From positions 1-25,205 of IMG/VR virus record IMGVR_UViG_3300005805_000451: 25,205 bases of DNA; one strand, 5' to 3'. The stretch comes from a virus (Duplodnaviria > Caudoviricetes). Shown here piece by piece: positions 8,791 to 25,205 of the stretch. Every line of letters starts with the position of its first letter. Position 1 is the first letter of the stretch. Under the pieces are notes generated by a model. It made no database searches, had not been told where the DNA came from, and saw nothing but the letters and a program-made list of their open reading frames with translations. A program made the translations under genes and the position numbers.

Positions 8791-9063
8791 TTCTGTTTCC
8801 CTCCTTAAGGGTGTTTGGTTGTTGTAGTTACCTTACAGCAAGCAATACCAAATTTCCAAAATCGCTTTACACCGTTAGGCAGTACCTACTATAGGGCATG
8901 CAATACCAAATTTCCAAAATCGCTAGACACCCACATTACCTATAGAGCAATTTTTTGATTTTCTTGCAGGGGTGTAACAGGGTTTTTCCGGGGCTGTAGT
9001 TCTCGATTGTTAGGTTGTCCTAACATCTGCGGCCGGGGCTTTTAAAAAAGAATAAACCGGTAG

Positions 9064-9752: not shown

Positions 9753-9951
9753 AGTAGATACTTCCTTTCACCACCCACCTTACAGGGTGCAATACCAAAT
9801 TTCCAAAAAGGGTCTTCCACCACCGTCACCTAAAGTGACTGGCCTCCGGAGGCTGTCCAGTTTTTTGATTTTTTTGAATATTTTGCCTGGAGCAAACCAG
9901 GCCCTTCGGCCGAATGGTGCTACTACCCACCACTCAGCCCGAGCCCCGGTC

Positions 9952-11258: not shown

Positions 11259-11659
11259 TTGTCACCAGCCTCGGCTAGGCGGTTCTTGATGTTGACCATT
11301 TCAGCCAAGTACTCATCAAATGACATTTGGAATGGGAACTCAATCCCGTCAACAATGTTTGAGAACAGGATGTTCCTATTTTGCATTTGTTGCCAAAGGT
11401 CAAGGAACTTGTAGCCAGCACTCAGGTACTGGTCAAATGCTGTAAGCCACTCTTCAGCGATACCTACAGACACCCAAGAGTCCTCACCTTCTACCAAGGA
11501 GAGCGAACTGCCGTTGTCCCAATCAACACCGATACACATCGCTCCAGCATTGTCATATGGCTCGCGCGTAACAGTCCCTAGGTCACCCTTGCGAATCCGT
11601 GTGTACGGGTCGCTGGTGCGAACTAGTTTGATTCTTTCTCCGACAAGTGTCTTGCTCAT
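11255..11659 (-). CDS. DUF4314-domain protein
   Basis: VGERIKLVRTSDPY...GDLGTV...VDWDNGSSLSLVEGED; AAGGAG SD before ATG 11659. Confidence 0.8.
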   Translation of the reverse strand: MSKTLVGERIKLVRTSDPYTRIRKGDLGTVTREPYDNAGAMCIGVDWDNGSSLSLVEGEDSWVSVGIAEEWLTAFDQYLSAGYKFLDLWQQMQNRNILFSNIVDGIEFPFQMSFDEYLAEMVNIKNRLAEAGDK

Positions 11660-11721
11660 GATTTTCTCCTTAGTAGTAGTTGAGGACATCTTAGGGTATC
11701 CAATACCAAATTTCCAAAAAT

Positions 11722-11940
11722 CTAGATTCCCTCTAGAACCTCAGACGGCTTCACCTTGAGTGCCGTGCAGAGCAGGATAAGTGACTGAAGGCTAGGTGAG
11801 AAGTGTCCGTTCTCAATCCGGTTGATGGTCTTGCGCTCGAGCCCCGCCTTCTTTGCCAACGCATCTTGCGAGAGTTCTCGCTCAATACGCAATTTACGAA
11901 GTCGTGCGCTGACCCGTGCTTCTTTCTTTTGGGTATTCAT
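11722..11940 (-). CDS. XRE/Cro-C1 HTH transcriptional regulator
   Basis: LRKLRIERELSQDALAKKAGLERKTINRIENGHFSPSL. Confidence 0.92.
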   Translation of the reverse strand: MNTQKKEARVSARLRKLRIERELSQDALAKKAGLERKTINRIENGHFSPSLQSLILLCTALKVKPSEVLEGI

Positions 11941-11972
11941 GTTTCTCCTTGTTAGGTGTTTGGTTGTTTATT

Positions 11973-12659
11973 TCAGTTTGCACTGAAAATCTGTTGTGCT
12001 GTCATGGCTGTATCCATGCCTTCTGCAATCTCAAAGACAAGAGCGTCTTTCCACTCGCTGTACTTCTCGTCAAAGTTTTCGTCGTCGTCGTCATATTCAG
12101 GCTGTCCCTGCATTTCGGGTTCCCCTTCAGCAACTATTTCGCCGTTATGAATGACCATGTACCCAGCAAAGAAATCTGCTTCCTCTGTGAAGTGCATTCC
12201 GAATACAAGTTCAGGGAACTGTGCTGATATGTTCTTGATTAGACCAACAGCAGGCGACCATGCGCTTTCCCAAGACAGTTGGATTGAGTTATTGCCGTCC
12301 TGAAATGTGTCCTCGTCAAACTCAATATTACAAGCACCCCATTTGGTATCCCAGTTCGCATACGCCCAGTCGTACCAGTCCTTGTAGCCATACTTGGCGA
12401 CATTCTTGGCTTGCTGTTCCTCTAGGGCAATCTGTTCAGGCTTTTTAGTTCCGTCCTCATTCGTTCCGTAGCCACCCGAAATTGTTTCGTGCAGTTCGGT
12501 TGGAATCGGGAACAGTTGGTTCAGACTCCAGTACGACTTGTTATGGTCAGCGAGGGCTTTCCATTCGTCAGTCTGCTCAACACGAATCGCTTCCACGAAT
12601 CGATTCAGTTCAGAGTTCGTCCCCCGAACTTCTCCATATTGCGTACACCAGTTAGGCAT
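11973..12659 (-). CDS. DUF1281/Api92/YubB-like protein
   Basis: MPNWC start, WYDWAYANWDTKWGA, WESAWSP motifs. Confidence 0.75.
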   Translation of the reverse strand: MPNWCTQYGEVRGTNSELNRFVEAIRVEQTDEWKALADHNKSYWSLNQLFPIPTELHETISGGYGTNEDGTKKPEQIALEEQQAKNVAKYGYKDWYDWAYANWDTKWGACNIEFDEDTFQDGNNSIQLSWESAWSPAVGLIKNISAQFPELVFGMHFTEEADFFAGYMVIHNGEIVAEGEPEMQGQPEYDDDDENFDEKYSEWKDALVFEIAEGMDTAMTAQQIFSAN

Positions 12660-12722
12660 TTCATTCTCCCTTTGTAGTAGTAGGTGATGTAACTATACAG
12701 GTACAAATACCAAATTTCCAAA

Positions 12723-13220
12723 TTAGTACCATGCGTCAGACCCACTGCACTCATTAGCAACCCAGCGCAACCACCAAATGGCGTACTTGACTTCCTTGTC
12801 CACGACCTCGCCCTCAATTTCCACTGTCCCATGCTCTTGCATACGCTCTTCCATCGCATCAGCGAGAGCGAGACATGACGATACTGACTTGAAGGTTCCG
12901 TCCTCGTTGTCTCCATAGAACGAGTATTCCTCTTCGTTCATCTGAAGAGCCTCTAGCAGGAAGTTCCCGTACTTTCCTCTGTACCAACAGTCTGTTCCGA
13001 ACATGCCAGTAACACTTCCTTCTTGCAAATCTGTTTTTGACACAGAGATGAGGTAAGGGCATTTGCCTTGTGCTTGCGTTGCTCTACAGTCAATGCTCTT
13101 TATTGGCAAGCCAGTTGCTTCGTCAGGAATGGCTACGCCGTCCCCATCAAGAATATCAACTTTTACTGCAGTACCAAGACGCTCGCAGGCGTATCGGTGT
13201 GGGATGTTGTCTAAGCCCAT
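12723..13220 (-). CDS. hypothetical protein (MGLD-start type)
   Basis: AAGGAG SD below the 13265 promoter. Confidence 0.8.
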   Translation of the reverse strand: MGLDNIPHRYACERLGTAVKVDILDGDGVAIPDEATGLPIKSIDCRATQAQGKCPYLISVSKTDLQEGSVTGMFGTDCWYRGKYGNFLLEALQMNEEEYSFYGDNEDGTFKSVSSCLALADAMEERMQEHGTVEIEGEVVDKEVKYAIWWLRWVANECSGSDAWY

Positions 13221-13368
13221 GTGTAACTCTCCTTAGTAGTAGGTGAGTACCACTATAGCGACCCAAATACCAAATTTCCAAACTCTTCCACCACCGTCAT
13301 GATAAGAAGCGATACTTGACCCAAGCCGGATTTTATGGTAGGTGATACCGGCATTGACCGTGAAGAGG

Positions 13369-13382
13369 CGAACATATGTTCG
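13369..13382. promoter_or_regulatory. LexA SOS box
   Basis: perfect palindrome CGAACATATGTTCG matching Gram-positive/actinobacterial CGAAC-N4-GTTCG. Confidence 0.75.
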
Positions 13383-13434
13383 GTCAGCCCCGGCGACTCA
13401 GTGGCCACCATGTACACCGGGGCTTTACGTTCGA

Positions 13435-13746
13435 TTACTCGGCGATATCGCTGGTAACCAAATTCCCGTTGGTGATTATCCAACCATCTTCATTCCGTTT
13501 CCAAATAAACCTAAAAGCTTCTTTTATGCCTTCTAGGTAGTAGAACACATCATCATCTAACACGCCGAAGTCGTCCCACCGTGATTCAACAGGGTCTTTA
13601 CTGAATGACAGGTAGTAGAAAAGCAATGAACCCTCTTCAGCCCAATAAATCTGTGCGTCCATACCGACCAGGATTTTCTTGCCGATAACCACTTCGGTAA
13701 TGTATTGAATCAACAATACGAATGTGGCTCTGATTTTATTCAGCAT
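13435..13746 (-). CDS. hypothetical protein
   Basis: TAATG coupling to upstream gene. Confidence 0.7.
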   Translation of the reverse strand: MLNKIRATFVLLIQYITEVVIGKKILVGMDAQIYWAEEGSLLFYYLSFSKDPVESRWDDFGVLDDDVFYYLEGIKEAFRFIWKRNEDGWIITNGNLVTSDIAE

Positions 13747-14066
13747 TATGCGCTCACTACATCTATGAGTTGTACGAATGAATCTAGTGGCTCACTGGCG
13801 TCAGGATAAGCCCTCATAGCGTCATCTAGGAACATTTGGTAAGCACCTAGGTCGTCACCTCTGAAGTAGTGATTCGCTCCACCATCTCCATAATTCTCTA
13901 CTCGGCACGCAATGATTCCTTTTCTTATAATTTGCGCCATCCAAGTAATGCCTCTTGAAGTTTCCATTTCGCTGATTATCTTGAAGTCGTACAGGCTGGC
14001 AATATCGTCTACTGCTGGCTCTGTCACGAATAGTTTCAGTGACGGTGGAAGTGTTGAATAAAGCAC
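13746..14066 (-). CDS. hypothetical protein
   Basis: TAGAAT, ACTACTAAC leader, AAGGAG SD, GTG start; SEMETSRG...VENYGDGG. Confidence 0.75.
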   Translation of the reverse strand: MLYSTLPPSLKLFVTEPAVDDIASLYDFKIISEMETSRGITWMAQIIRKGIIACRVENYGDGGANHYFRGDDLGAYQMFLDDAMRAYPDASEPLDSFVQLIDVVSA

Positions 14067-14104
14067 GATTTCTCCTTTGTTAGTAGTTGTAATGATTCTA
14101 GCCG

Positions 14105-14623
14105 TCAGCAGATTTGGAATCCACCGCAGTTCTCTAGGAACTCTGCGAACCGCTTGACATTTTCCACATCAAACGGATATGCAGTAAGCCACGATTCTTT
14201 AGTGCCAATTCCATCACAAGCATTGCACCAGCCGTTAGTACGCCCAGTGAGAATCTGATTTTCAGGCGAGAGTTCTTTAGTAGGCATACCCATTTCCACG
14301 CCTACTTCATCACTGCGAATACCAGTGCATTCACATAGTTCACACGCTTCACGGGGAAGAGAGGAACGCCACTCGTTATAAGTCTGTGCGTACTTCTCTA
14401 CCTTGCCATCAGCAATGTCTTGCTTCAGTGACCACGCTAAGCACTCTGCTAGTGGCTCATCTAGCCCATCACCGTCGTTTGAGTGCCAGTACTCGCAACC
14501 GCTAGCAATGTCTTCATAGTTGTTGCAGATGAAGTCTGCTAGTGGACGCCAGTACCACACATTGTTACGGAAGTAACTGCCCTTTTCATTCTTTGGATTT
14601 ACTCCAATGACATCCATACCCAT
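14105..14623 (-). CDS. hypothetical protein with CxxCxxxG Zn-binding insert
   Basis: MGMD...YFRNNVWYWRPL; CELCECTG and CNACDGIG. Confidence 0.8.
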   Translation of the reverse strand: MGMDVIGVNPKNEKGSYFRNNVWYWRPLADFICNNYEDIASGCEYWHSNDGDGLDEPLAECLAWSLKQDIADGKVEKYAQTYNEWRSSLPREACELCECTGIRSDEVGVEMGMPTKELSPENQILTGRTNGWCNACDGIGTKESWLTAYPFDVENVKRFAEFLENCGGFQIC

Positions 14624-14710
14624 TTTCTTGCTCCTTGTTAGTAGTAGTTAGGTGACTAAATCTTACAGTACTGAATACCAAATTTCCAAAATCGAGATAG
14701 AGCCCCGGGG

Positions 14711-14974
14711 TTACCCTTTCAATGCTTTCTGACACGATTTTACTAGGTCGGTCGGGTATAGGTGTTGCCGTTCCTCAGAGTTTTTTGGTGCTACAGCCCA
14801 CTTCAACCAACGCTCATAATCTCTTAGTGTTGGGTCGTCTGTCTCGCTCGGTTTCAGATATGTGTTTATGAAGTGTGGCAGAGTTGTTAGCCCTAGTTGT
14901 TCCATAACCCCAATTATGGCAATCATCTTGTAGCCAATCATTGTTGCCAATTCGTCAAATGTCGGTTCGCTCAT
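14711..14974 (-). CDS. hypothetical protein
   Basis: ATGA overlap with upstream gene. Confidence 0.7.
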   Translation of the reverse strand: MSEPTFDELATMIGYKMIAIIGVMEQLGLTTLPHFINTYLKPSETDDPTLRDYERWLKWAVAPKNSEERQHLYPTDLVKSCQKALKG

Positions 14975-15438
14975 ACTTTTGCCTCATCAAATGGACATTG
15001 AGCAACTTCACCGAATACAGCCTCGTACAAGTCGCGCCCGTCTTTCCACTCACTCCAGTCGCCGTCTGACGAAATAGACACGCAAGAGCCATAGATTTCT
15101 TTAGCCCGAATAAGTATTGCTGTCACTACAGCGTCATACGGTTTCTGTGCTGTTTTGCAAAAATCAAAGATTTCAGGCTCATTTTTTCTCCACTCAACTT
15201 GTGTTGGCATAGCCTTCCAAGTAAAGGTTTCGTGAGACATATCATCTATGCCATTGAGACTGAACTCGCCCTCTGTGAATTGTGGTGAAGTTCCATTCTC
15301 TCCACTCCAGTCGCCTAGTTTTATGCCAATTGTGTATGCGTATTCGCAAATCGCCTTAGCGTCTAGTGCGAGTTTGCCATACATATAGGCAGACCCAGCG
15401 TTATTTCGTGGTCGGTAGTTGTAGTGGGTGTAACCCAT
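14971..15438 (-). CDS. conserved-looking phage hypothetical protein
   Basis: MGYTHY...HETF...FCKTAQKPYDAVV...SSDG; GAAAGG SD. Confidence 0.8.
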   Translation of the reverse strand: MGYTHYNYRPRNNAGSAYMYGKLALDAKAICEYAYTIGIKLGDWSGENGTSPQFTEGEFSLNGIDDMSHETFTWKAMPTQVEWRKNEPEIFDFCKTAQKPYDAVVTAILIRAKEIYGSCVSISSDGDWSEWKDGRDLYEAVFGEVAQCPFDEAKV

Positions 15439-15517
15439 AGTTATTGCCTTTCGTTAGTAGTTAGTAGTACCTTAGCAGACCCAATACCAAATTTCCAAAA
15501 TAGATATAGCCCCGATA

Positions 15518-15730
15518 TTAGATTTCCAATTGCTCGTAAATCATCAAATCCTCTTCATCAAAGAATGGGTTTGAGTGCCTACCAATACCAGTCACCCACA
15601 TCTTGCGCCCGTGTTGCCCGCTATCTCCGATTGCGTCCTGCACCCGTGAGATTGCCTCTCCAGCCGCCGCTCCATCATCCACGGCGTTCACATCAAGCGT
15701 CACCATTACGGTTACTCGGTAGGTATTCAT
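15518..15730 (-). CDS. hypothetical protein
   Basis: TGATG overlap, GGAG SD. Confidence 0.65.
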   Translation of the reverse strand: MNTYRVTVMVTLDVNAVDDGAAAGEAISRVQDAIGDSGQHGRKMWVTGIGRHSNPFFDEEDLMIYEQLEI

Positions 15731-15999
15731 CAGTAAGTACTCCAATCGTAGTTGTCGTTTTTATGTGCAATTTCCTCGGAACACACTCCGATTACCTTTA
15801 GCGTTTCGCCGTCAATAATGCGACTACATTTTTCACAAAGATAAACCTGCCCGTCCCAATCTCCGTAGAGAGTTGGCGAGACAATCTCTCCAGTCCTTAG
15901 ACAAGAGTAGAAGCCCTCGTAGTTTGGTTGGTTGCCACATAGGCACTGAAACCAATCAGTAGTTCCACCTATGTACTCCTCGTACATTCGCTTACTCAT
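15730..15999 (-). CDS. hypothetical Cys-rich protein
   Basis: CLCGN...SC...CEKC; GAGG SD before ATG 15999. Confidence 0.7.
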   Translation of the reverse strand: MSKRMYEEYIGGTTDWFQCLCGNQPNYEGFYSCLRTGEIVSPTLYGDWDGQVYLCEKCSRIIDGETLKVIGVCSEEIAHKNDNYDWSTY

Positions 16000-16237
16000 A
16001 CTCAACCTCTGTTCCGTAGTCGTGTACGCATTCGCTGTCGTACTCCTCTGCGTGGTCTTCCATTGTGCGGAAGTTGCAATTCTCATTTATCCACTCATAG
16101 CGAGCGTCAGCGTCCCACTTATCCCACTCGGACGGAAGTTCCATTCCTTGTGGCATATCGTAGTACTTGTAACGGGTGTACTTGACGAGCATATGCTCAT
16201 CAACGGTAACGGCAAAGCGTGTAGGTGTAGTAGTCAT
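15992..16237 (-). CDS. hypothetical acidic protein, probably leaderless
   Basis: ATG lies 6 nt after -10 TATGAT of the 16257 promoter; no SD. Confidence 0.7.
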   Translation of the reverse strand: MTTTPTRFAVTVDEHMLVKYTRYKYYDMPQGMELPSEWDKWDADARYEWINENCNFRTMEDHAEEYDSECVHDYGTEVEYE

Positions 16238-16429
16238 AAGTACATCATAAGGTACGCAATACCAAATTTCCAAATTGCTTTCCGCCACCGTCAAGATAAT
16301 AAGGGTGGTGGGTGGCTCGGTTTTTTCGCAGGGCAACTCATTTATTTTTTGCGATTTTTTTGGAATTTTCTGGCAAGCCCCGCAGCACAATCTGGCCGCA
16401 CCGAGGCCGGGGCTCTAGTGGAAAATAGC

Positions 16430-16651
16430 TCACTCCTTTTCCATTGGTGTTGCCCAGCGGTCTTCGCTGTCGTAGAAGCAAGTGTTACAAACGAAACCGT
16501 CTAGGTCATTATCCCAAACTGGCTCACTCCCAAATGTGCGTACAGTCATTTCTATTCCGCACGAGTCACAATTAGCCCTATCGCCACGAATATGAACTAC
16601 GCCGTGTACGAGTGGCAGTGAGTTGATTTTTTCGATATATGCCTCGCTCAT
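16430..16651 (-). CDS. small Zn-finger-like protein
   Basis: CDSC...CNTC; GGAG SD; start uncertain. Confidence 0.65.
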   Translation of the reverse strand: MSEAYIEKINSLPLVHGVVHIRGDRANCDSCGIEMTVRTFGSEPVWDNDLDGFVCNTCFYDSEDRWATPMEKE

Positions 16652-16656
16652 ATCGG

Positions 16657-16926
16657 TCACTCCCAAGCCCTATTGAGTAGTATCCCTGCGAATGGGTTTG
16701 GATATCCAACCTTGTCATTCAGCCAACGCTCACTATCAGAGTGTTGAGTTTCGCAATCACGAAAAGTATCAGTGGCGAACGCCTTGCCGTCTTTCATAAG
16801 GCGAACGAGCAGTTTGCCAGTGCCGTCTTCCCATATGTCCAGTTGGTAGGTAGCGTCAATGCCACCGAATGGACCAGTTTGCTCACCGAATACAGAGAGT
16901 TTATGAGTCATTACAGCAGTACTCAT
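16657..16926 (-). CDS. hypothetical protein
   Basis: TAATG coupling. Confidence 0.7.
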   Translation of the reverse strand: MSTAVMTHKLSVFGEQTGPFGGIDATYQLDIWEDGTGKLLVRLMKDGKAFATDTFRDCETQHSDSERWLNDKVGYPNPFAGILLNRAWE

Positions 16927-17216
16927 TACTTACCGCCTCTCTCGGTATAACGAGCAACAGCCTCGGTCAGTGTGGTGCAGTAGTCACCGCTATAACGCTC
17001 CCAGCCACTAGGACGAGCCACAACGGTCCATATGGCGAACTTATGAAAAGGATTACTTTCGTTATAGCAGAGAGTAATCCACGAAGCGTAGGTGTCTCCG
17101 AGTTCACGATTACCAGTCTTAGTGAGTGCCAAGACGGTCACTCCCGAAGCGATTACTTCGCCAAGAGTAAGTTCAGCGAATGTGAGGTCCGCCGAATTGT
17201 CGGTTAGTAGGTACAA
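16926..17216 (-). CDS. hypothetical protein, paralog of 22174..22455 (TTG start)
   Basis: GAAAGG SD; shared GE.IASGV, YASW, KF..WTV.A, SGDYCT, RGGK. Confidence 0.75.
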   Translation of the reverse strand: MYLLTDNSADLTFAELTLGEVIASGVTVLALTKTGNRELGDTYASWITLCYNESNPFHKFAIWTVVARPSGWERYSGDYCTTLTEAVARYTERGGK

Positions 17217-17406
17217 GGTATTTCCTTTCGTAGTAGGTGAGATAGACACTACAGGACTCAATACCAAATTTCCAAAAAAATATTGAGCCCCGCAGCGTGA
17301 CTTGCGAGAGGCAGCTGCGGGGCTTTTCGCGCGCATAAGGAAGCCCTGCCCACCAGTTACGGCAGGCAGGGCTTCGGTTGTTCGTAGGGGTGAAAGGGGT
17401 AATGCC

Positions 17407-17844
17407 CTAGAACAAACCCATAATCGCTTCGGCAAGCGCACCACGAGCCGTACCGTCATCGGTAATTGTCTCATCAGGTGTGTCCGAGAAGCGCATAACG
17501 CTAGCCCAACCGTCTTTGCCAGCGAAAACCATTAGGCGTACACGCCTGCGCTGTGGGTGCTGTGACGGTGCTACCCCATTTTCAGGGTCATCGTTTTCGG
17601 TGATAGGTGAAGCCCAACCGCAAGTTACGAGGGCGATGTAATCGCTCACCTTCGCTACTGCTCGGCTGTCATCGCTGTCAAGTAGGTCGTACACATCGCC
17701 GTGTTCGCCTGCCAAGACCATAGCAACCCCTTCATCAGTTTCGTTGATAGCAAAGAACAATGCCGTTTTCAGGTCAAAGTCTCCTTCCAGTTGTTCAGAG
17801 ATAAGCCTCTCGGCAAACTCTGCTTTATTCAGTACATCGCTCAT
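17407..17844 (-). CDS. hypothetical protein
   Basis: GAAAGGA SD before ATG 17844; GWASP...APSQHPQRRRVRL. Confidence 0.8.
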   Translation of the reverse strand: MSDVLNKAEFAERLISEQLEGDFDLKTALFFAINETDEGVAMVLAGEHGDVYDLLDSDDSRAVAKVSDYIALVTCGWASPITENDDPENGVAPSQHPQRRRVRLMVFAGKDGWASVMRFSDTPDETITDDGTARGALAEAIMGLF

Positions 17845-18121
17845 CGGTAGTTCCTTTCGGTAGTAGTTGATTAGATAAGCACTACTCACCTTACTGTATC
17901 CAATACCAAATTTCCAAATTACGGGTAGCCCGTACGAGAGCCCCGCTGGGCTAGTCTTTGTGGGTGGACGAACTAGCGCAAGCACGAAGCCGGGGCTTAT
18001 CAAAAAGAATTGCCGAGTTTGACATTGAGTTGTATAACCTTTGGGTACAGATAAGAGGCGTAGAGCAAGGTAACGCCGAGTTCACTGCCGACAATTTGCG
18101 AAAGAGTTTCAGGGTAATAAC

Positions 18122-18156
18122 AAAAGAGGGCTAGAGATTTCTCTCTAACCCTCTTT
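18122..18156 (-). terminator. intrinsic terminator
   Basis: AAAGAGGGTTAGAGA-GAAA-TCTCTAGCCCTCTTTT after stop at 18173. Confidence 0.7.
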
Positions 18157-18172
18157 CGGTAGGTGGATAGGA

Positions 18173-18571
18173 CTAGACCGCTTCGGCGGTTTCGGTAACT
18201 GCGCCTTCGGCAAGGTCACGGATAACGATACGAGTGTAAGCCGTTGGCTTCACACACGCAGTTTCCACTTCCTCACTGATATCGCCAGCCTTACGAGCCT
18301 TATCAAAAGCCTTCGGCTCAACGGCAGTCTTAGTGACTGCGCCGAACACTTTGGCATTGACAAGTTCTGAAAGTGTTGCGACATCAAAGTTGCGACGAAT
18401 TGCCTCAACAAGTTGGACACACTTGTCGTTCGCTTCCCAAGAGTTCACGCCTGCTTCGGCGTACGCTTCGGAAAGCAATTCCTTCGCAACAGCGACGGCT
18501 TTCTCGGCAGAAGCAAGAGCCTCAACGGCACTCACATACTGGCGAGCAACGGCAGAAAGTTGCTTAGACAT
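18173..18571 (-). CDS. hypothetical protein with N-terminal helical region
   Basis: AAGGGGGTG SD; sole ORF of its promoter-terminator unit. Confidence 0.8.
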   Translation of the reverse strand: MSKQLSAVARQYVSAVEALASAEKAVAVAKELLSEAYAEAGVNSWEANDKCVQLVEAIRRNFDVATLSELVNAKVFGAVTKTAVEPKAFDKARKAGDISEEVETACVKPTAYTRIVIRDLAEGAVTETAEAV

Positions 18572-18768
18572 ATTTTTTCACCCCCTTAGGTGTCTGTAGT
18601 AGGTAGTACCACTATACACACCCCAATACCAAATTTCCAAAATTGCTTGACGGCTGGCAGAGCCCCGTCTTTGCTGCTGGCGGTTCGAGCTGCGGGGCTA
18701 AACGCGCGCATAAGAAAGAGTGGCAGGGTTTCCCCCACCACTCCTTCCCGTTCGGTAGTCAGGCTTGA

Positions 18769-19194
18769 CTAAAGGTACTCAGACACCGACTTGAGAGTAG
18801 AAGCATTGACATACTCCTGCTCAGTCATTTTGAGAACACGGATTGCCTGCTTGATTTCCGTTGTCTCGCGCTCGTACCTGTGGTCGGCGTATGCCTCAGG
18901 GCACTCAGGCTCTTTTGGAAGTGCTGTCTTTGGCAACTCCATAGTGACCTGAAACTCTGCTGTCTTGCTCTTTGAGTTGGAACTGCTGTACCAACGGTTT
19001 CGGCTTGCTTCCGTGATGACGCCTTTGGTCTTGACGAGTTTGAGGATAGCCAAGTTGTAGGCTTCCTTTGCTTTCTCGTAGGTAGCCATTTCTTTTTCTT
19101 GATTGGCGTAACGCTGTTCGCGCTCTACCAATGCTTTCTCTAATGATGAGATGAGAGTACTCACCTTCACCTTGACGGATATTGACTTGCTCAT
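18769..19194 (-). CDS. hypothetical coiled-coil protein
   Basis: GAAAGG SD below the 19248 promoter. Confidence 0.8.
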   Translation of the reverse strand: MSKSISVKVKVSTLISSLEKALVEREQRYANQEKEMATYEKAKEAYNLAILKLVKTKGVITEASRNRWYSSSNSKSKTAEFQVTMELPKTALPKEPECPEAYADHRYERETTEIKQAIRVLKMTEQEYVNASTLKSVSEYL

Positions 19195-19373
19195 TATGCC
19201 CTGCCTTTCGTAGTAGTTGATTGGGGCAGTAATGACTATACAGTACGCAATACCAGATTTCCAAAATGAAACGGGCAGGGCTTTCCACCACCGTCATCTA
19301 AAGACGGGTACTTGACAAGCCCCCTCGCACCTGCTAGTGCGCCGATTTTTTTTTGAGCGATTTTTTGGTGGGG

Positions 19374-19387
19374 CGAACATATGTTCG
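19374..19387. promoter_or_regulatory. LexA SOS box
   Basis: CGAACATATGTTCG. Confidence 0.75.
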
Positions 19388-19448
19388 GTCAGCCCCGCAG
19401 TGTCGCCAGCGTAGCGGGGCTCATGGAAAAAACTAACTCTTTCGAGTT

Positions 19449-19853
19449 CTAGTCTTTCCACTCCGTTACTACTGGAGTGAGGTCCATTCCCTCTCTGTAC
19501 TTGTTCAGGGAGAGGCTTACATCTGTGTCGAGCGAAGCCTCGAGAGCCATGTTGGCGAAGTGCGCTGTCATGAAGTCGCTCGGAACATTGGTGTCGTAGC
19601 CTTCATCGTCAGCGATACCGACCAGCACAACATCGCCAGCGAGAACTCTGTGGAACAACAAGGAAGCAATGTTGTTTGTAGGCAGGTCGATAAGCAAGCC
19701 TTCATCGTGGACATAGGCAGTAACGCCCATTTCGTAATCGTTCACGCAGTCGAACCAGCCACCAACCAATTCGTGAATAACGGTATGAGCGCCGTCACGC
19801 GGAAGTTCGATAGCGGTTATTTCACCGCTTGTCTTGACAAGTACTGCTTTCAT
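19449..19853 (-). CDS. DUF3846-domain protein
   Basis: LVGGWFDCV...YVHDEGLLIDLPTNNIAS...LAGDVVLVG. Confidence 0.8.
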   Translation of the reverse strand: MKAVLVKTSGEITAIELPRDGAHTVIHELVGGWFDCVNDYEMGVTAYVHDEGLLIDLPTNNIASLLFHRVLAGDVVLVGIADDEGYDTNVPSDFMTAHFANMALEASLDTDVSLSLNKYREGMDLTPVVTEWKD

Positions 19854-20072
19854 AAATTGCCCTCTTTCGTAGTAGTTGGTTTCACTCTACAGGAGCCAAT
19901 ACCAAATTTCCAAAAAATCTGCAGCCCCGGTGGTCGCGCTGCCGGGCTGGACGCAGCAACCCACAAATGCCGCCATTGAGATTGCTGCCGGTTGGTGGCA
20001 GCCGGTAGAACGGGGCTCATAAGTAATAAACATTCGACCCCCACCATTACGGCAGGGGTCGGTGGCTGTTGC

Positions 20073-20360
20073 TTATCGGTAACGCTTCAACCAATCATCG
20101 TCTTTGCCCCACTCGTCGGAGTGAGACGGTACGAGAAAGCTCTTGCCTGTTTCGTGGTCATAGCGGTAGTAATCAAGACGCTTAGAACAGCCGTCAGCGT
20201 TGCACATAAACGGATAGTCGTGTATCTCGTTACAGCCGTTCCAACCGTCGTATTCAGCGTCGGTCTTAGCGCAGTAGTCAGAGCAGTAGTAGTGAACATC
20301 AAGAACATCTACGGCTTCTCCACGCTCGTTGCGTGAGTAAATCTCTACACGGTGTGTCAT
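20073..20360 (-). CDS. hypothetical Cys-containing protein
   Basis: YYCSDYC...C....C; TAATG coupling. Confidence 0.7.
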   Translation of the reverse strand: MTHRVEIYSRNERGEAVDVLDVHYYCSDYCAKTDAEYDGWNGCNEIHDYPFMCNADGCSKRLDYYRYDHETGKSFLVPSHSDEWGKDDDWLKRYR

Positions 20361-20521
20361 TACTTGTACTCCTTTGCAATGAATTCATCTACTGCTTTAT
20401 CCAGTATTTCCAGTAGGTTCTCGTCCTTTGTCTTTGTGTATAGTTCCCACATAGCAACAAAGGTAGCAATTTTGTTTATGCGTGCTTGTTGCTTGTTTCG
20501 CATTATCTCCATCATGTCCAT
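20360..20521 (-). CDS. small hypothetical protein
   Basis: GAAAGGGG SD before ATG 20521. Confidence 0.7.
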   Translation of the reverse strand: MDMMEIMRNKQQARINKIATFVAMWELYTKTKDENLLEILDKAVDEFIAKEYK

Positions 20522-20634
20522 TGGTATCCCCTTTCGTTGGATATGTCCATCGTATAGCACGCGATACCAAATTTCCAAAATCGTATTCAGCCCCGGCATG
20601 GCTGCATGCATTCTTTGCCGCGGAGCTATTTGTG

Positions 20635-20678
20635 AAAAAAGCAGCATCAGCGAGCGTGCTGCCACTCGCTGATGCTGC
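20635..20678 (-). terminator. intrinsic terminator
   Basis: 14-bp stem GCAGCATCAGCGAG/CTCGCTGATGCTGC followed by T6 on the minus strand. Confidence 0.75.
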
Positions 20679-20697
20679 TGGAAGTTCTGAATGAATA

Positions 20698-20883
20698 TCA
20701 GATAGCTTGAATTTCATCGCCCATTCGCGAGTAGCAGCCGTTGCGTGGATGGCTGCCATTCTCGCAGAGTGAGTAGAACGGTACGCCGTAGTAGTTCAGG
20801 TCAATGGAGACAATTCGCCCCACCATTTCTTGACCGTCTAGCTGCCACGACACTTGCTGATTCAGTTCATACTTGACTGACAT
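20698..20883 (-). CDS. small hypothetical protein (SH3-like beta pattern)
   Basis: GAAAGGGG SD before ATG 20883. Confidence 0.7.
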   Translation of the reverse strand: MSVKYELNQQVSWQLDGQEMVGRIVSIDLNYYGVPFYSLCENGSHPRNGCYSRMGDEIQAI

Positions 20884-21032
20884 TTCGTATCCCCTTTCAG
20901 TTGGATACTCATACCCTAGCACATACAATACCAAATTTCCAAAATGTCTAATGCCCAAAACAGCCCCGCGTCGAAGTCAACACATCCGGGGCTATCGAAA
21001 TGAAACGCGCTGCGGATTTGTTTTCAGACGCG

Positions 21033-21067
21033 AAAAAGCCCACCGCACATTTCGCACGGTGGGCTTT
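21033..21067 (-). terminator. intrinsic terminator
   Basis: AAAGCCCACCG...CGGTGGGCTTTTT. Confidence 0.75.
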
Positions 21068-21084
21068 ACTCGAATTGCTGTTAC

Positions 21085-21213
21085 TTATTTCGTTGGCTTA
21101 CCAACTCGAAGCTTGTTTGCCAGCCCTGTTGGGAAGCCAATTTCGCCTCGCTCAACAGCGCCTGTGTTCGACGCTGGTTTGCGCTTTTTCTTTGGCTTGT
21201 TGCTCTCGTTCAT
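21085..21213 (-). CDS. 42-aa basic hypothetical protein
   Basis: GGGGGTG SD; sole ORF between the 21256 promoter and a terminator. Confidence 0.6.
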   Translation of the reverse strand: MNESNKPKKKRKPASNTGAVERGEIGFPTGLANKLRVGKPTK

Positions 21214-21416
21214 ATTCACCCCCATTCCCTTTCGTAAGAGCAACACTACAGTATGCAATACCAAATTTCCAAAAAATATATAGCCCCGCATTATTTGCGG
21301 CAAACAAATATTGCTGCGTTGTTGTTGCGGCAGGCGATTATCGCTGCGCATTCTTTACGAGAAGTGGGTTCTGTTGCCAAGCCCCACTCGGCTCCGTTTG
21401 TTAGACAGTTGGCGGA

Positions 21417-21617
21417 CTACCAGTCAGCGCAGATGCCGCTGTCGTCAATCGCCCAAGCGTCGACGAGTTTGGCATCGTTCTGACGAGCGACATCACGACC
21501 GAAGCGCTTCGCTGCAGTTGCTGCAGAAGCCTTCGTTGTGAAGTAGTCGCACGCAGTCTCTGTCCACTCTCCGCCACGATTATCGTGAACGAGAGCGCAC
21601 AGTGTGTACTCCTTCAT
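21417..21617 (-). CDS. small hypothetical protein
   Basis: GAAAGGGGGTG SD before ATG 21617. Confidence 0.7.
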   Translation of the reverse strand: MKEYTLCALVHDNRGGEWTETACDYFTTKASAATAAKRFGRDVARQNDAKLVDAWAIDDSGICADW

Positions 21618-21741
21618 TTGTTCACCCCCTTTCAAGAAGTGTGGTTCGAGCGGTTCTCGAACGCAGTATCACCTTAGTACACGCAATACCAAATTTCCAA
21701 AATAGTGGTTTCTGTTGCCAAGTACCACTGGACTCCGTTTG

Positions 21742-21966
21742 TTAGACGGATTGGTTCTCCCACAGACCTCGCGTCTTGTGTCCCACCAATGGATACTCAT
21801 AATTGAGGTATCCGATTGGCAGGTCCGCAGCGTAGCGATTGGTTGCAATGAATGTTTCCATATCAATGCCGCAGCGCTTGAGGTCACGCATGACAGATGT
21901 CAGCAGGTGTGGCTTTATCACACGCTGACGAATCATCTGTCCGTCGTGGAACTGAATAATCATCAT
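21742..21966 (-). CDS. small hypothetical protein
   Basis: GAAAGGGGGTG SD before ATG 21966. Confidence 0.7.
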   Translation of the reverse strand: MMIIQFHDGQMIRQRVIKPHLLTSVMRDLKRCGIDMETFIATNRYAADLPIGYLNYEYPLVGHKTRGLWENQSV

Positions 21967-22123
21967 ATTTTTCACCCCCTTTCAAAGAAGTGTGGTTCAA
22001 GAACGGTTCTCGAACGCACTATGACCTTACTGGACGCAATACCAAATTTCCAAAATAAAGATTGCTCGATTTAGCCCCGCAGCAGAGGCGAATAAGCAGA
22101 TGATTGAAGCGGGGCTCACGTAC

Positions 22124-22152
22124 AAGAAAAGCGACCCGAAGGTCGCTCTTCC
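22124..22152 (-). terminator. intrinsic terminator with UUCG tetraloop
   Basis: AGCGACC-TTCG-GGTCGCT-TTTCTT. Confidence 0.8.
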
Positions 22153-22173
22153 CGAACTTGCCGACTTGCTGAA

Positions 22174-22455
22174 CTACTTGCCACCTCGTGACTGGTAGTG
22201 CTTCACGGCATCAATGATTGATGTGCAGTAGTCGCCACTCTCACGCACCCAGCCGTAGTCCTCGGTTGCAATCACTGTCCACACTACGAACTTGGCGTGT
22301 GGGTCGTTTGTGACTTCGCAGATGGCAACCCATGATGCGTAGACGATACCGACCATGCGGTCTGATTTTTTCGTGCATGCAATCACTCGCACACCCGATG
22401 CGATTTCCTCGCCGAACTTCAACTCACTTGCTTCGGTCACCTTGATGGTATCCAT
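22174..22455 (-). CDS. hypothetical protein, paralog of 16926..17216
   Basis: GAAAGGGG SD; colinear similarity with 16926..17216. Confidence 0.8.
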   Translation of the reverse strand: MDTIKVTEASELKFGEEIASGVRVIACTKKSDRMVGIVYASWVAICEVTNDPHAKFVVWTVIATEDYGWVRESGDYCTSIIDAVKHYQSRGGK

Positions 22456-22554
22456 GTCGTTCCCCTTTCGTGGGCTTGTTTGTTTGACATTCAATACCTT
22501 ACAGTATGCAATACCAAATTTCCAAAACGGTCAGAGCCAAAATAAGCCCCGGCT

Positions 22555-22719
22555 TTACTCCTCGTCGCCCTCATACTCGTAGTCTGCTGGAGAGTAGTCA
22601 TACCTGTCGGGATTAGCCCTGTACTCCTCACGGTACTCCTCTGTGGTCTTGCCAGTACGACATGCTTCCGCTTCTTGCTTCATGTCATGCATGAGGTTGC
22701 TGTCAAAGTAATCGCTCAT
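22555..22719 (-). CDS. 54-aa acidic hypothetical protein (not in ORF track)
   Basis: ATGA overlap, GGGAG SD; MSDYFDSNLMHDMKQEAEAC... Confidence 0.65.
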   Translation of the reverse strand: MSDYFDSNLMHDMKQEAEACRTGKTTEEYREEYRANPDRYDYSPADYEYEGDEE

Positions 22720-22883
22720 CTCATACTCCCTGCATACATTCTGTCCTGTAGGTCTGCGTGGTGGTAATCACATAGCGAGACAGTGATAATTCCACTCTCG
22801 TATTGGCGTACAGTGCCACCGCATTTATCTGCGGTATCTGCATTGGTGTTGAGTTCTCTGCATTGAGTTGTTGGTGTATTCAC
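22716..22883 (-). CDS. 55-aa Cys/His hypothetical protein (not in ORF track)
   Basis: AAGGA SD, GTG start; C...C...LCDYHH. Confidence 0.6.
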   Translation of the reverse strand: MNTPTTQCRELNTNADTADKCGGTVRQYESGIITVSLCDYHHADLQDRMYAGSMR

Positions 22884-22885
22884 GA

Positions 22886-23074
22886 TTATTCCTTTCCTTG
22901 AATTGCGCTTGCCATTCTAATCGCCAACGTGACTTTCTGATTTTCTGTAAGCCTCTCGCTGTTGAGCATGGCTACAAGACGATTTATCTCCCACTCGTAG
23001 CGTGACAGGCGAGTGTCAAGCATTTTCAGTGCGAAGTCGTCTGATGATATTTCGTTTTCGTTTTCATCGTACAT
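22886..23074 (-). CDS. small hypothetical protein
   Basis: GAAAGGGG SD below the 23123 promoter. Confidence 0.75.
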   Translation of the reverse strand: MYDENENEISSDDFALKMLDTRLSRYEWEINRLVAMLNSERLTENQKVTLAIRMASAIQGKE

Positions 23075-23171
23075 TGCTATCCCCTTTCAAGAGATTATCT
23101 GTTGGTATAAGTATAGGGTACGCAATACCAAATTTCCAAATTACAAAATTAGCCCCGGGATTCCGGGTGGA

Positions 23172-23387
23172 CTAGTTGCTGTTCTTTAGTGCCCTTACCA
23201 TTCTCTGTATCTTTTTGGCGGCAGGGCTGTCTAGTTGAGTTACGCAATAACCAAGCTCATCTAGCTTGTCAAAAAACCCCCACCAGTCTATTCGTTCCTC
23301 ATTGGCATACCAGTCGTCATACAGTGACTCCACTAGCTCAATGCAGGCATCAGTAATGTCGCTTGCCTCAACAATGTTCACCGACAT
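23172..23387 (-). CDS. small hypothetical protein
   Basis: starts 2 nt after the upstream stop; start uncertain. Confidence 0.7.
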   Translation of the reverse strand: MSVNIVEASDITDACIELVESLYDDWYANEERIDWWGFFDKLDELGYCVTQLDSPAAKKIQRMVRALKNSN

Positions 23388-23389
23388 AC

Positions 23390-23575
23390 TCAAAATGCCC
23401 AACCGTCTGCTCGTACACGCTCCCCAAAGTAGTGAGTGTCAATAATGTCATTGACGCTTCCGTTCTTTTTGAGTACTTGGGAAAACTTACAGAACTGACA
23501 ACCTGCGAACGACCGACTCCCCTTTACGGGTCTGCCCTCAAGACCGCTGCCCTCACACTTGACTCTTTTTTCCAT
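23390..23575 (-). CDS. small Cys/His hypothetical protein
   Basis: GAAAGGGG SD; CEGSG...CQFC...H. Confidence 0.7.
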   Translation of the reverse strand: MEKRVKCEGSGLEGRPVKGSRSFAGCQFCKFSQVLKKNGSVNDIIDTHYFGERVRADGWAF

Positions 23576-23782
23576 TTTGTTATCCCCTTTCATTGGATAC
23601 CAACAACTTACAGCATGAAATACCAAATTTCCAAATTGAACAACAAGCCCCGGGGACCGGACGCTGCTTACCGGTAAATATTCCGTCCGGACCAAATAAT
23701 GCCGGGAATGAAGCGGGGCTCTCGGCCAAATAAGTGGCGCAGGTTTCCCCACGCCACCTAATCGGTTGGGATTACTTAGCGA

Positions 23783-24085
23783 CTAATCGGCGTCGTAGTA
23801 ATCTTCAGGGTTGTCGCACCATGCGTCTAGGTGGTGGCCTTCAATAATTGCCCACGCAGGCGCACTGGTGTTGCCTCGCCACAATACGCCGTCAGGCAAT
23901 TCAATTAGTTCATCGCCGTTGAAGTTGGCGTTATAACTATCTATCGCCTTTACGCACACTTCCACCATTGTTAGCGGTACTGGTGGATAGTGATTACTTT
24001 GCAGGTGAATTGCTAGGGCATTGTCAATAGTAAGCCCGTACTCATCGCCGTTGTCGGCTAAGTCTCTCGCCATTGTGTTACCCAT
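23783..24085 (-). CDS. hypothetical protein
   Basis: TGATG coupling; HLQSNHYPPVP...HHLDAW. Confidence 0.8.
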   Translation of the reverse strand: MGNTMARDLADNGDEYGLTIDNALAIHLQSNHYPPVPLTMVEVCVKAIDSYNANFNGDELIELPDGVLWRGNTSAPAWAIIEGHHLDAWCDNPEDYYDAD

Positions 24086-24360
24086 CAGCGCACACTCTCA
24101 TTCCAAATAGCCTCATGCGTACAGTGTTCGCATAAGTTCACTTCATCGTCTTCATCGGCTCGCAGGTATTCAGTGAAGTAGATAGTGAGACTATCCTCAC
24201 TCTCGTAGTCACTCCAGCCAACCGTGTTGCCACACTCTTTGCACTCACGTTCATTCAACTGCAATTCATCGTGCCAGTCGTTGTAACGCTCTTGCGTGAT
24301 TACAGTTGGCGCAAATTCAGGCGCACTTGTAATCCACCTGTCTAATGCTCTCATATCCAT
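24085..24360 (-). CDS. Zn-finger-like hypothetical protein
   Basis: AAGGGGG SD before ATG 24360; CKEC...CEHC. Confidence 0.7.
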   Translation of the reverse strand: MDMRALDRWITSAPEFAPTVITQERYNDWHDELQLNERECKECGNTVGWSDYESEDSLTIYFTEYLRADEDDEVNLCEHCTHEAIWNESVR

Positions 24361-24592
24361 ATTGCCCCCTTCAGGACTGTAGTAGTTGGAGTTGGTGGGA
24401 GCCTGTCGGGAGACTTTGGTAATCCCCCGATTAGCGTTATGTGACACTCTTCAGTCCCACCAACAATGAATACCTTACAGTATCCAATACCAAATTTCCA
24501 AACTGCGACTGGCCACCCTGCGCCTTCAAGAGCGTGGTTTGAGCCCCGCATGCCAACTGTCTTGGGTGTTGGAGTGGCGGGGCTATAAAGCC

Positions 24593-24626
24593 AAAAAAGT
24601 CGAGCAACCGATTGGCTGCCCGACTT
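24593..24626 (-). terminator. intrinsic terminator (near-duplicate at about 25037-25069)
   Basis: AAGTCGGGCAGCC-AATC-GGTTGCTCGACTTTTTT. Confidence 0.75.
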
Positions 24627-24647
24627 CTCGGAGGGTTTTACTGGCGC

Positions 24648-24884
24648 TTACTGCTGGAGTTTGTACAACTCGTAAATCCAGCCAGTGCCACCGCCGTAGT
24701 GCCACTTCTCACCAATGCGGTTCTTCATTTCGTAAAGCGCGTCATCCAACATGTAGATGGCACCTTCGCCTTCTTCGCTCTCGAGGTTCCTGAGCATCTC
24801 AGTCATCTCGTCGAGCAAGGTCCTGAGTTCTTGGGCGATTTCCCCAACACTCATTGCCTTGTCCTCCTCCAACATTTCATCCAT
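24648..24884 (-). CDS. small acidic hypothetical protein
   Basis: AAGGGG SD below the 24956 promoter. Confidence 0.75.
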   Translation of the reverse strand: MDEMLEEDKAMSVGEIAQELRTLLDEMTEMLRNLESEEGEGAIYMLDDALYEMKNRIGEKWHYGGGTGWIYELYKLQQ

Positions 24885-24904
24885 TACTTTCCCCTTTGTT
24901 CGAA

Positions 24905-24920
24905 TGTTCCACGTGGAACA
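24905..24920. other. parS-type centromere palindrome
   Basis: TGTTCCACGTGGAACA matches the bacterial parS consensus TGTTNCACGTGNAACA; palindrome extends to 20 bp. Confidence 0.65.
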
Positions 24921-24998
24921 TTTGGTTTTCCTTACGAGACCAATACTAGTACACCCAATACCAAATTTCCAAATTGAAAAATAGCCCCGGCTTGGGGG

Positions 24999-25012
24999 CG
25001 AACATATGTTCG
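24999..25012. promoter_or_regulatory. LexA SOS box
   Basis: CGAACATATGTTCG. Confidence 0.7.
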
Positions 25013-25072
25013 TTAATGAAGCGAGGCTATAAAACTAAAATGTCGGGCAACCGATTTGGCTACCCGACACTT

Positions 25073-25205
25073 TCAGTCGATTTGGATTTTGTCAAACACT
25101 TCGGCTCGAGCATTGAGCATCGCCCAATGAAAAGCGTCCATGAAAATCTGCTGCTTCTCTGCCGACCGAAACTCTCGCTCGGCGTGGGCTCGAGCCTCGG
25201 CGGCC
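25073..25205 (-). CDS. 3' end of a hypothetical protein (truncated by window)
   Basis: open frame ...EREFRSAEKQQIFMDAFHWAMLNARAEVFDKIQID-stop, followed by a terminator. Confidence 0.55.
   Translation of the reverse strand, partial: AAEARAHAEREFRSAEKQQIFMDAFHWAMLNARAEVFDKIQID

Follow-up and report, generated by a model that had tools for sequence, protein, structure and literature searches.

What is the role of a seven-letter word, AGCCCCG, that recurs with its inverted copy CGGGGCT between the small genes of a phage? The question is raised by the 25,205-nt virus record IMGVR_UViG_3300005805_000451 (completeness estimate 17%), which was analysed in full and is called here the window. A previous reading of its letters (the sequence-only reading) had offered three answers: a bipartite operator, an attC-like recombination site delimiting cassettes, or a clamp presenting variable RNA loops as guides or decoys. 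The window represents part of a whiB-carrying lake phage whose genome measures about 160 kb. Here, we describe a repeated module in which the paired words hold a set place, a word that is constant across a phage family and confined to one early-gene block, interiors that diverge, and differences between relatives that are placed at words and promoters. We propose, with a probability of roughly 0.45, that the pairs are the junction element of repeated early-gene cassettes, each consisting of a gene, a terminator, a word pair and a predicted host-type promoter. At about that same probability, the word would be a double-stranded DNA site for a conserved protein acting on early transcription, and words and promoters together would be the seams of cassette exchange.

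Layout of the junction module

All 13 AGCCCCG/CGGGGCT pairs of the sequence-only reading were found where it had placed them. Five span 39 bp around a 25-nt interior, as it had described: 13386..13424, 16376..16414, 17286..17324, 18661..18699 and 20589..20627, the last with one mismatch (CGGAGCT on the plus strand). The remaining interiors measure 45 nt (17939..17997), 17 nt (19391..19421), 81 nt (19923..20017), 18 nt (20962..20993), 30 nt (22073..22116), 61 nt (23646..23720), 29 nt (24542..24584, an exact pair) and 32 nt (24983..25028, with one mismatch). The exact arrangement AGCCCCG-N5-35-CGGGGCT has eight matches in the window and none in any of 100 dinucleotide-preserving shuffles. Counted singly on the plus strand, AGCCCCG occurs 21 times and CGGGGCT 14 times.

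Nearly every plausible gene of the window is carried by the minus strand, and the junctions follow one order on this coding strand: a stop codon, a hairpin with a T-run, AGCCCCG, the variable interior, CGGGGCT, a short gap, the 17-mer TTTGGAAATTTGGTATT, 8 nt, TAnnnT, a 5' leader with ACTACTAC and GAAAGG, and then ATG. The 17-mer is present in 24 copies (22 of them exact) against 0.11 expected, and TAnnnT stands exactly 8 nt behind it in 24/24. A consensus scan reads these sites as TTGGAA, 18 nt, TAnnnT. The combination fits a host sigma-A-type promoter, and we refer to the sites as predicted promoters.

On the minus strand, the predicted promoters lie at 8830..8918 (two in tandem, with 17-mers at 8844 and 8902, before the AAA ATPase gene), 9777..9807, 11688..11718, 12692..12722, 13252..13282, 14660..14690, 15469..15499, 16244..16274, 17246..17276, 17888..17918, 18611..18641, 19235..19265, 19884..19914, 20549..20579, 20913..20943, 21243..21273, 21671..21701, 22024..22054, 22496..22526, 23110..23140, 23605..23635, 24472..24502 and 24943..24973. 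The 17-mer has one change in those at 19235..19265 and 20549..20579. The 200 nt upstream of the promoters at 12692..12722 and 21671..21701 hold no 7-mer.

The sequence-only reading had placed the pairs between cassettes, with true terminators lying separately beside them, and had concluded that the pairs are not terminators. These points hold. Strong minus-strand hairpins with T-runs adjoin the pair at 24983..25028 on its coding-strand upstream side (25037..25073) and likewise the pair at 20589..20627 (20640..20679), and another lies upstream of the pair at 19923..20017 (20035..20061). On visual inspection, a hairpin with a T-run lies upstream, on the coding strand, of some 11 of the 13 pairs, so that the pairs sit between a terminator and the next promoter. 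A terminator scan never called a full pair, with loops of 16-81 nt, and called only small inner hairpins at three of them. A terminator role of the pair itself is doubtful because a separate hairpin with a T-run usually lies upstream.

The sequence-only reading was silent on the 24-copy 17-mer module, on the nature of the stretch as a phage fragment, and on lone CGGGGCT copies that precede five promoters. On the minus strand, these partnerless copies stand at 14701..14707 (10 nt upstream of the promoter at 14674), 15508..15514 (8 nt upstream of 15483), 21282..21288 (8 nt upstream of 21257), 22545..22551 (18 nt upstream of 22510) and 23151..23157 (10 nt upstream of 23124). All five come directly after the upstream stop codon.

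Paired or lone, a word lies within 39 nt upstream of 15 of the 24 predicted promoters, and the promoter-proximal word is CGGGGCT in 15/15 cases. The gaps between word and 17-mer in the window are 8, 8, 8, 9, 9, 9, 10, 10, 10, 18, 18, 18, 19, 20 and 39 nt. When unique junctions of three promoter lineages were pooled, these junctions being partly orthologous, the gap from the word to the -35 TTG was 9-11 nt in 24, 12-13 nt in 2, 19-21 nt in 15, 32-33 nt in 2, 40-42 nt in 7, 44 nt in 1 and 53 nt in 1. No junction had a gap of 14-18, 22-31 or 34-39 nt. A period of about 10.5 bp fits a factor on double-stranded DNA facing the polymerase and is not expected of an RNA element. Within the window, the linkers between word and promoter share no sequence relation. 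Fixed geometry of this kind is what a protein operator would be expected to have.

A family-wide word confined to the early block

A search with the 17-mer returned several IMG/VR contigs with many copies, in which the parts follow one another as in the window. Among these is G001, a complete genome of 160,449 bp with terminal repeats, which runs colinear with the window (nucleotide identity 71-92%). Of the 164 word copies counted in four complete relatives, all but one fall inside a single early-gene block of about 35 kb. In G001 these are 57/57 copies at 78.8-113.0 kb (strands 28/29; reversed control word 0 + 3), in G006 36/36 at 38.8-73.0 kb (17/19; control 6 + 5), in G007 39/39 at 95.2-131.5 kb (19/20; control 6 + 5) and in G008 31/32 at 2.4-31.1 kb (17/15; control 0 + 1). 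Markov models of G001, both strands counted, expect 2.6-4.0 copies in the early block of about 36 kb, where 57 were found, and 3.4-6.7 in the other 124 kb, where there are none.

With the ATPase as query, 122 relatives were obtained, from which the 80 best loci (66-98% ATPase identity) were used. The 7-mer is enriched in nearly all 80 and is among the top 7-mers in most of these loci of about 20 kb, with 16-25 copies each. Conservation in relatives, whose absence the sequence-only reading had listed among refuting signs, is borne out by a word constant across the family. L151 is the sole locus of the 80 without the 7-mer, and a substitute clamp word looked for there was not found. Several proteins are family-wide and absent from L151, namely the products of 9246-9752, 5030-5401 (HA + HTH) and 37-369 (WhiB) and of genes 4477, 3842, 1300 and 455. 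By this distribution they are candidates for reading the word. The product of 11722-11940 is family-wide as well.

Copies of the word also occur inside genes. The SNF2-family helicase gene of G001 (83581-85503; L056 13584-15503, minus strand) carries three 7-mers, at 84266, 84731 and 85414, and their spacing is the same in G002, G003 and G005. Another arrangement lies upstream of the tandem ATPase promoters of the window, where two 7-mers in the same orientation, 45 nt apart (8989-9040), surround the palindrome GTTAGG-N4-CCTAAC. It is kept in G004, L075 and L084.

Interiors of the pairs

The words are kept between the window and G001 and the flanks reach 47-48/50, whereas gapped alignments give interior identities of 13/25 (17286), 17/30 (22073), 18/25 (18661) and 37/45 (17939). 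Around the 13/25 interior at 17286, the flanks match at 47/50 and 39/50. An inversion of this interior between the window and G001 was considered and rejected, since the by-eye alignment is not that of a reverse complement. At 16376, the first 17 interior nt are the same in G001 and the left flank is unrelated. Length varies too: 61 vs 30 nt at 23646, where both ends are in common, and 81 vs 40 nt at 19923. Contigs from sequencing runs X3 and X4, which belong to different studies, have 38 other letters between the two words of 19923..20017.

The sequence-only reading had suggested searching the interiors as possible guides. No guide-like match came from the window, G001 and 84 related loci (host genomes being outside the search); the only matches were orthologues and the box CGAACATATGTTCG. 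Rfam at gathering thresholds gave no family match. Interiors that diverge freely and match nothing else argue against guides or decoys and for a spacer.

The box just mentioned is a palindrome, found at 13367-13382, 19370-19387 and 24995-25012 and again in many related loci; we take it to be LexA-like, given its resemblance to the LexA box of Gram-positive bacteria and Actinobacteria. Two of the three copies adjoin a 7-mer pair and one lies inside a pair. On the coding strand, the pair at 13386..13424 is followed by the box and then the promoter at 13266, and the pair at 19391..19421 is also followed by the box; the third copy is contained in the 32-nt interior of the pair at 24983..25028.

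Single word and folded pair

Among unique sequences there are 169 pairs in the order AGCCCCG..CGGGGCT, with interiors of 16-18 nt in 121 and 24-25 nt in 20, and only 16 pairs in the reverse order. L106 has its words in the reverse order. L142, L146 and L147 carry 16-25 words and hardly any pairs, and L103 likewise has many words and few pairs. According to the open reading frame list and the sequence context, several copies in L142 lie within the reading frames of a tightly packed gene block. As lone copies, coding copies and pair-poor lineages all keep the word, the unit that is always kept is the single word and not the pair. An invariant half-site with copies standing alone is a property of operators, and the constancy of the word over the 80 loci, together with its lone and coding copies, agrees with it.

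In predicted RNA folds, 13/13 pairs close a 7-bp stem, at -13 to -44 kcal/mol. The statement that interiors are mostly not self-complementary was thus right in part: several (13386, 17286, 20962 and 24542) add predicted pairs of their own, and the 7-bp stem closes each fold. The stem gives no covariation signal, because its sequence never varies. Further statistics come from the bases around it, with the caution that they count partly orthologous sites. A purine precedes AGCCCCG in 85% of pairs and a pyrimidine follows CGGGGCT in 75%, in combinations that the margins predict (z 0.1). At the two ends of the interior, the first and last bases pair in only 17% vs 38% expected (z -5.9); over 81 pairs from 20 representatives (the window and 19 loci) they read CC in 28, GG in 20, CG in 11 and GC in 1. 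Same-letter interior ends may be a polarity mark or may merely follow strand composition. Outward positions 2, 4, 5 and 6 are complementary above shuffled partners (z 3.3-5.3), which fits a longer hairpin or a longer palindromic site. In the 16 one-mismatch pairs, the mismatch is mostly at the outermost base and would be a G-U pair in 2 on the coding strand and in 11 on the other strand, which leaves 3.

The bipartite operator of the sequence-only reading stands in one respect and not in another. The 7-mer does look like a double-stranded DNA word in helical phase with the promoter, but the spacing of the two halves varies, with interiors of 17-81 nt in the window and mostly 16-18 nt in relatives.

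Cassette borders and recombination

One cassette of the window is absent from G001. On the coding strand it runs from CGGGGCT at 20968-20962, through the promoter at 20927, the gene at 20883-20698 and a terminator, to AGCTCCG at 20627-20621; the pair at 20962..20993 is its upstream border and the pair at 20589..20627 its downstream border. G001 has a single pair at this place, whose left flank matches that of pair 20962 at 42/50 and whose right flank matches that of pair 20589 at 42/50. Segments of BLAST similarity to G001 end at 25022 and 24989, the inner arm edges of one pair, and at 20986, 20595 and 20011. Further ends lie at 23165, 16430 and 14719, at most 16 nt from words, and at 21700, 21271 and 19915, at or adjoining 17-mers. 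G001 similarity begins at the lone word at 14701..14707. The other segment ends fall at gene starts or stops or inside genes. Mapping of breakpoints among relatives, another proposed check, therefore shows that differences often begin or end at words or promoters. In 22 contig joints listed from four runs, both ends lie at most 25 nt from a word or 17-mer in 13 and one end does in 2, compared with 17.8% of the region that is this close. Several of the joints may be repeat artefacts, because their sides are short (21-31 letters).

A recombinase elsewhere in the genome, which an attC-like site would call for, was looked for in six frames in the four complete relatives. Phage_integrase (PF00589), Resolvase and Y1 transposase (PF01797) were found in 0/4, and in control genomes under the same searches in 14/14, 12/14 and 6/14, respectively. 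The repeats also lack, in these four genomes, the Y1 (HUH) transposase partner that would place them with REP/RAYT-type repeats. G001 has recombination genes of another kind: a Rad52/Erf-like annealing protein adjoining a PD-(D/E)XK exonuclease, RuvC, a protein with an endonuclease VII domain, two HNH proteins and SSB.

Possible roles of the word

In the reading we favour, a protein would bind the promoter-proximal CGGGGCT on one helix face, about 10, 20, 30 or 40 bp upstream of the -35 TTG, and would act on early transcription as an upstream activator, an insulator or a shut-off site. A second site for this protein would be the distal AGCCCCG, which directly follows the upstream terminator. 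Word and promoter would also serve as seams, because they are the only stretches kept at every junction, and the Rad52/Erf-like protein and the PD-(D/E)XK exonuclease could exchange, delete or insert whole cassettes there.

Several points weigh against this proposal. The proteins that may read the word are candidates only. The centre-to-centre distance of the words is 23-25 bp in most lineages and 32 bp in the window, where it ranges over 24-88 bp, unlike a rigid dimer. Every pair closes a predicted RNA stem, with complementarity at outward positions 2, 4, 5 and 6, and the equivalent stem-loop of the PeSL cassettes of T4-type phages terminates transcription (PMC2839356). Most contig joints lie at the 17-mer and not at the 7-mers, and two indels with respect to G001 (genes 10214-10633 and 2773-3144), outside the array, have no word at their borders. 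Because some junctions in different genomes are orthologues of each other, the phase histogram and the flank statistics count certain sites more than once. The host, the activity of the promoters and the ends of the transcripts are all inferred.

It seems unlikely, though worth serious attention, that the pair acts as a folded hairpin in RNA or single-stranded DNA, as a second, loop-tolerant attenuator or terminator or as a 3'-end protector, with lone words as its remnants. All 13 pairs do fold, CGGGGCT is often followed by T-rich sequence, the stem continues outward in some lineages, in differing letters, and a reporter showed termination of transcription at PeSL stem-loops (GGGG...CCCC; PMC2839356). 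Against a hairpin, nothing covaries in an invariant stem, and the bases just outside and just inside it are not complementary. The loops reach 81 nt, and a canonical terminator already lies upstream of about 11 of 13 pairs. The word is retained in lone copies, in coding copies and in lineages without pairs, the one-mismatch pairs, changed mostly at the outermost base, would give G-U in only 2 of 16 on the coding strand vs 11 on the other, and helical phase with the -35 would not be expected of RNA. A recombination signal is rather improbable in our view. It would be either a Chi-like stop for an exonuclease of host or phage or a nicking or cutting site, flanking each cassette so that processing of breaks reaches as far as the cassette borders and cassettes are exchanged as whole units. 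It would agree with confinement to the mosaic early block, with nearly equal strand numbers, with copies inside coding sequence, with constancy across lineages (as a host-determined signal would have), with difference borders at words and with the recombination proteins of G001. It leaves the helical phase and the tight pair spacing unexplained, however, the contig joints mostly fall in the 17-mer, and no enzyme is tied to the word.

The two other proposals of the sequence-only reading fare worse. Integron attC sites have core sites RYYYAAC / GTTRRRY together with a second box and unpaired bases, and integron cassettes are promoterless and read from one common promoter. The pairs have a similar shape, with 7-bp inverted arms, a variable interior and one site per border of an array of small genes on one strand. 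However, the arms AGCCCCG/CGGGGCT are a different core, no second box, no conserved unpaired bases and no other interior positions under conservation were seen, most sites measure 30-39 bp, each cassette has its own predicted promoter and terminator, and the four complete relatives gave no tyrosine or serine recombinase and no Y1 transposase. An attC-like site of an integron-type or other site-specific cassette system is accordingly very improbable. We give just as little credence to a clamp whose interiors are guide or decoy RNAs. A constant stem with a variable loop, of modal length 25 nt in the window, is what had suggested it. Orthologous interiors nevertheless drift and change length, most relatives have 16-18 nt, matches are limited to orthologues and the LexA-type box, and many words stand alone. 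Lying behind a terminator and upstream of the next promoter, the pair would also rarely be transcribed. A bolder conjecture, to which we assign a low probability, is that AGCCCCG is the address word of an integrase-free cassette exchange: a conserved phage protein would bind or nick it at either side of each early-gene cassette, and whole promoter-gene-terminator units would pass between co-infecting phages of a freshwater group that is very abundant. With similarly slim odds, this binding or nicking would be the reason why the remaining genome is kept free of the word.

Comparison with known systems

The closest system is that of the PeSL cassettes of T4-type phages (Arbiol et al., 2010, PMC2839356; Comeau et al., 2014, PMC4122927). 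As described in those papers, many composite units lie among small early genes, most of them of unknown function, and combine a G/C-run stem with a free loop, a host-type promoter, a ribosome site and a start codon; insertions, deletions and swaps between close relatives occur at the units. The window has counterparts to each of these: a hyperplastic block of small genes without recognised function and with mosaic similarity to G001, a conserved G/C stem next to a promoter at the 13 pairs, a many-copy sigma-70-like early promoter (as predicted), and indels and swaps between close relatives at the units. Cassette exchange at units has been proposed for the T4-type phages, and the authors raised the speculation that a DNA-binding protein targets the GGGG...CCCC stem. 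For PeSLs, terminator activity was shown, as were mini-circles, which arise when adjoining units undergo exchange.

The phage here is unrelated, with an HK97-type capsid, whiB and a likely actinobacterial host, and its words differ from those given in PMC4122927. Membership of the PeSL group by descent was considered and rejected, given the HK97-type capsid, Phage_portal and Terminase_6 of G001 and the whiB gene of the window. The present module also differs in having one invariant family-wide 7-mer stem, loops of 16-81 nt and usually a separate canonical terminator, and in a word that, while restricted to the early block, turns up there without a partner and within genes as well.

In form, the nearest counterpart from actinobacterial phages is the 17-bp repeat TGTTCGGNNNCCGAACA of Cluster O mycobacteriophages (Cresawn et al., 2015, PMC4351075). 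Its 7-bp inverted arms never vary, and its 34 copies are located between genes, near starts and inside genes. Its word is another one, its spacer is fixed at 3 bp and A/T-rich, its spread is genome-wide, and the sections of that paper describing it report no link to a repeated promoter. The ESAS elements of Cluster K mycobacteriophages (Pope et al., 2011, PMC3203893) likewise have inverted repeats with a variable spacer, lie upstream of a subset of genes and are kept at orthologous genes. They are described with imperfect 17-bp arms and a 4-13-bp spacer, and are tied to a translation-start motif instead of a junction of promoter and terminator. The likeness to integron attC sites lies in 7-bp inverted arms, variable interiors and cassette borders; the system here differs in its core, its cassette-own promoters, its much shorter sites and the lack of an integrase in the genomes searched.

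The module carries the idea that early genes come in self-contained, swappable promoter-terminator cassettes beyond the T4-type phages of Gram-negative bacteria, to a large uncultured freshwater family with whiB. New features here are a word reserved across the whole family and excluded from the remaining 120 kb or so of each genome, the phase that it keeps with the promoter, and a joint switch of promoter words between close relatives. In phage genomes from metagenomes, the word offers an easy way to spot early regions and the borders of cassettes, and it points to a putative protein-DNA recognition pair that is open to direct tests.

Promoter words by lineage

The most repeated 12-mer varies by lineage: it is TTTGGAAATTTG in the window, TTGTAAATCTGA in L075 and L077, and GTATCTGTCCTG, CTAATAGATAAC, ACTAGATAAGTC or others elsewhere. 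L075 has 97% ATPase identity and orthologous junctions, yet 12/12 of its promoters carry the other word. All promoter copies switch together, from TTTGGAAATTTGGTAT in the window (8844-24973, 24 sites) and G001 to TTTGTAAATCTGATAT at the orthologous junctions of L075 (240-9931) and L077, and distant lineages have their own repeated word each. In its 27 promoter copies, G001 has a final C in 24/27 where the window has T (2/24 in the window). The -35 TTG and TAnnnT are retained across lineages, and the change sits in the promoter spacer region. A spacer change in all copies together suggests a lineage-specific factor reading the spacer, for which this region would be the operator. The joint switch between near-identical phages thus provides a second lead, and suggests lineage-specific control of early transcription.

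As to a reader of the promoters, no phage-own RNA polymerase was recognised among the G001 proteins. The 3563-aa (amino acid) protein of G001 was considered as such a polymerase and rejected; it is polyvalent, and not a polymerase by Pfam or PHROGs. Its gene lies behind the portal gene (G001 33055-43746; L069 55-10743), and its domains are a prohead protease, a UvrD helicase, ArdC-N, a zincin metallopeptidase, sigma-70 region 4 and WYL. Speculatively, a sigma region 4 domain carried in the virion could influence how early promoters are used.

Two further motifs accompany the promoters. At the promoters at 9791, 13266, 16258 and 19249, the four whose 7-mer is more than 100 nt away, a 13-mer, GACGGTGGTGGAA or GACGGTGGCGGAA, precedes the 17-mer by 2-17 nt. 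In many loci this motif supplies the top repeated 12-mer, and even the 7-mer-less L151 has it, as TGACGGTGGAGGA. In the 5' leaders of most cassettes, (C)AACTACTAC followed by GAAAGG(G/A) stands just before the start codon, and ACTACTA is among the commonest 7-mers of L072, the G001 locus.

Phage, host and other genes of the window

The G+C content of the window is 0.44-0.51. It encodes a WhiB protein at 37-369 (Pfam E 1.8e-14), a Cro/CI-type HTH protein, an AAA_5 ATPase and a replication-initiator-like protein, and G001 encodes an HK97-type capsid, a portal (Phage_portal), a terminase (Terminase_6) and baseplate J. Of 25 small proteins from 13.4-24.9 kb, 24 have no Pfam family match and 24 no PHROG match, and megablast of 13000-25205 against a phage collection gave no match. 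In freshwater metagenomes, whiB has been used as a marker for phages of Actinobacteria (PMC10914622). The presence of whiB makes a host among the Actinobacteria likely, in keeping with the actinobacterial guess of the sequence-only reading. By their labels, the sequencing runs in which this DNA occurs are metagenomes of lake, estuary, freshwater, drinking-water and aquatic origin.

One gene of the window, at 10214-10633 on the minus strand (139 aa), has no tblastn match in the 80 related loci, and its neighbours on both sides do match. It is a lineage-private insertion whose borders carry neither 7-mer nor promoter.

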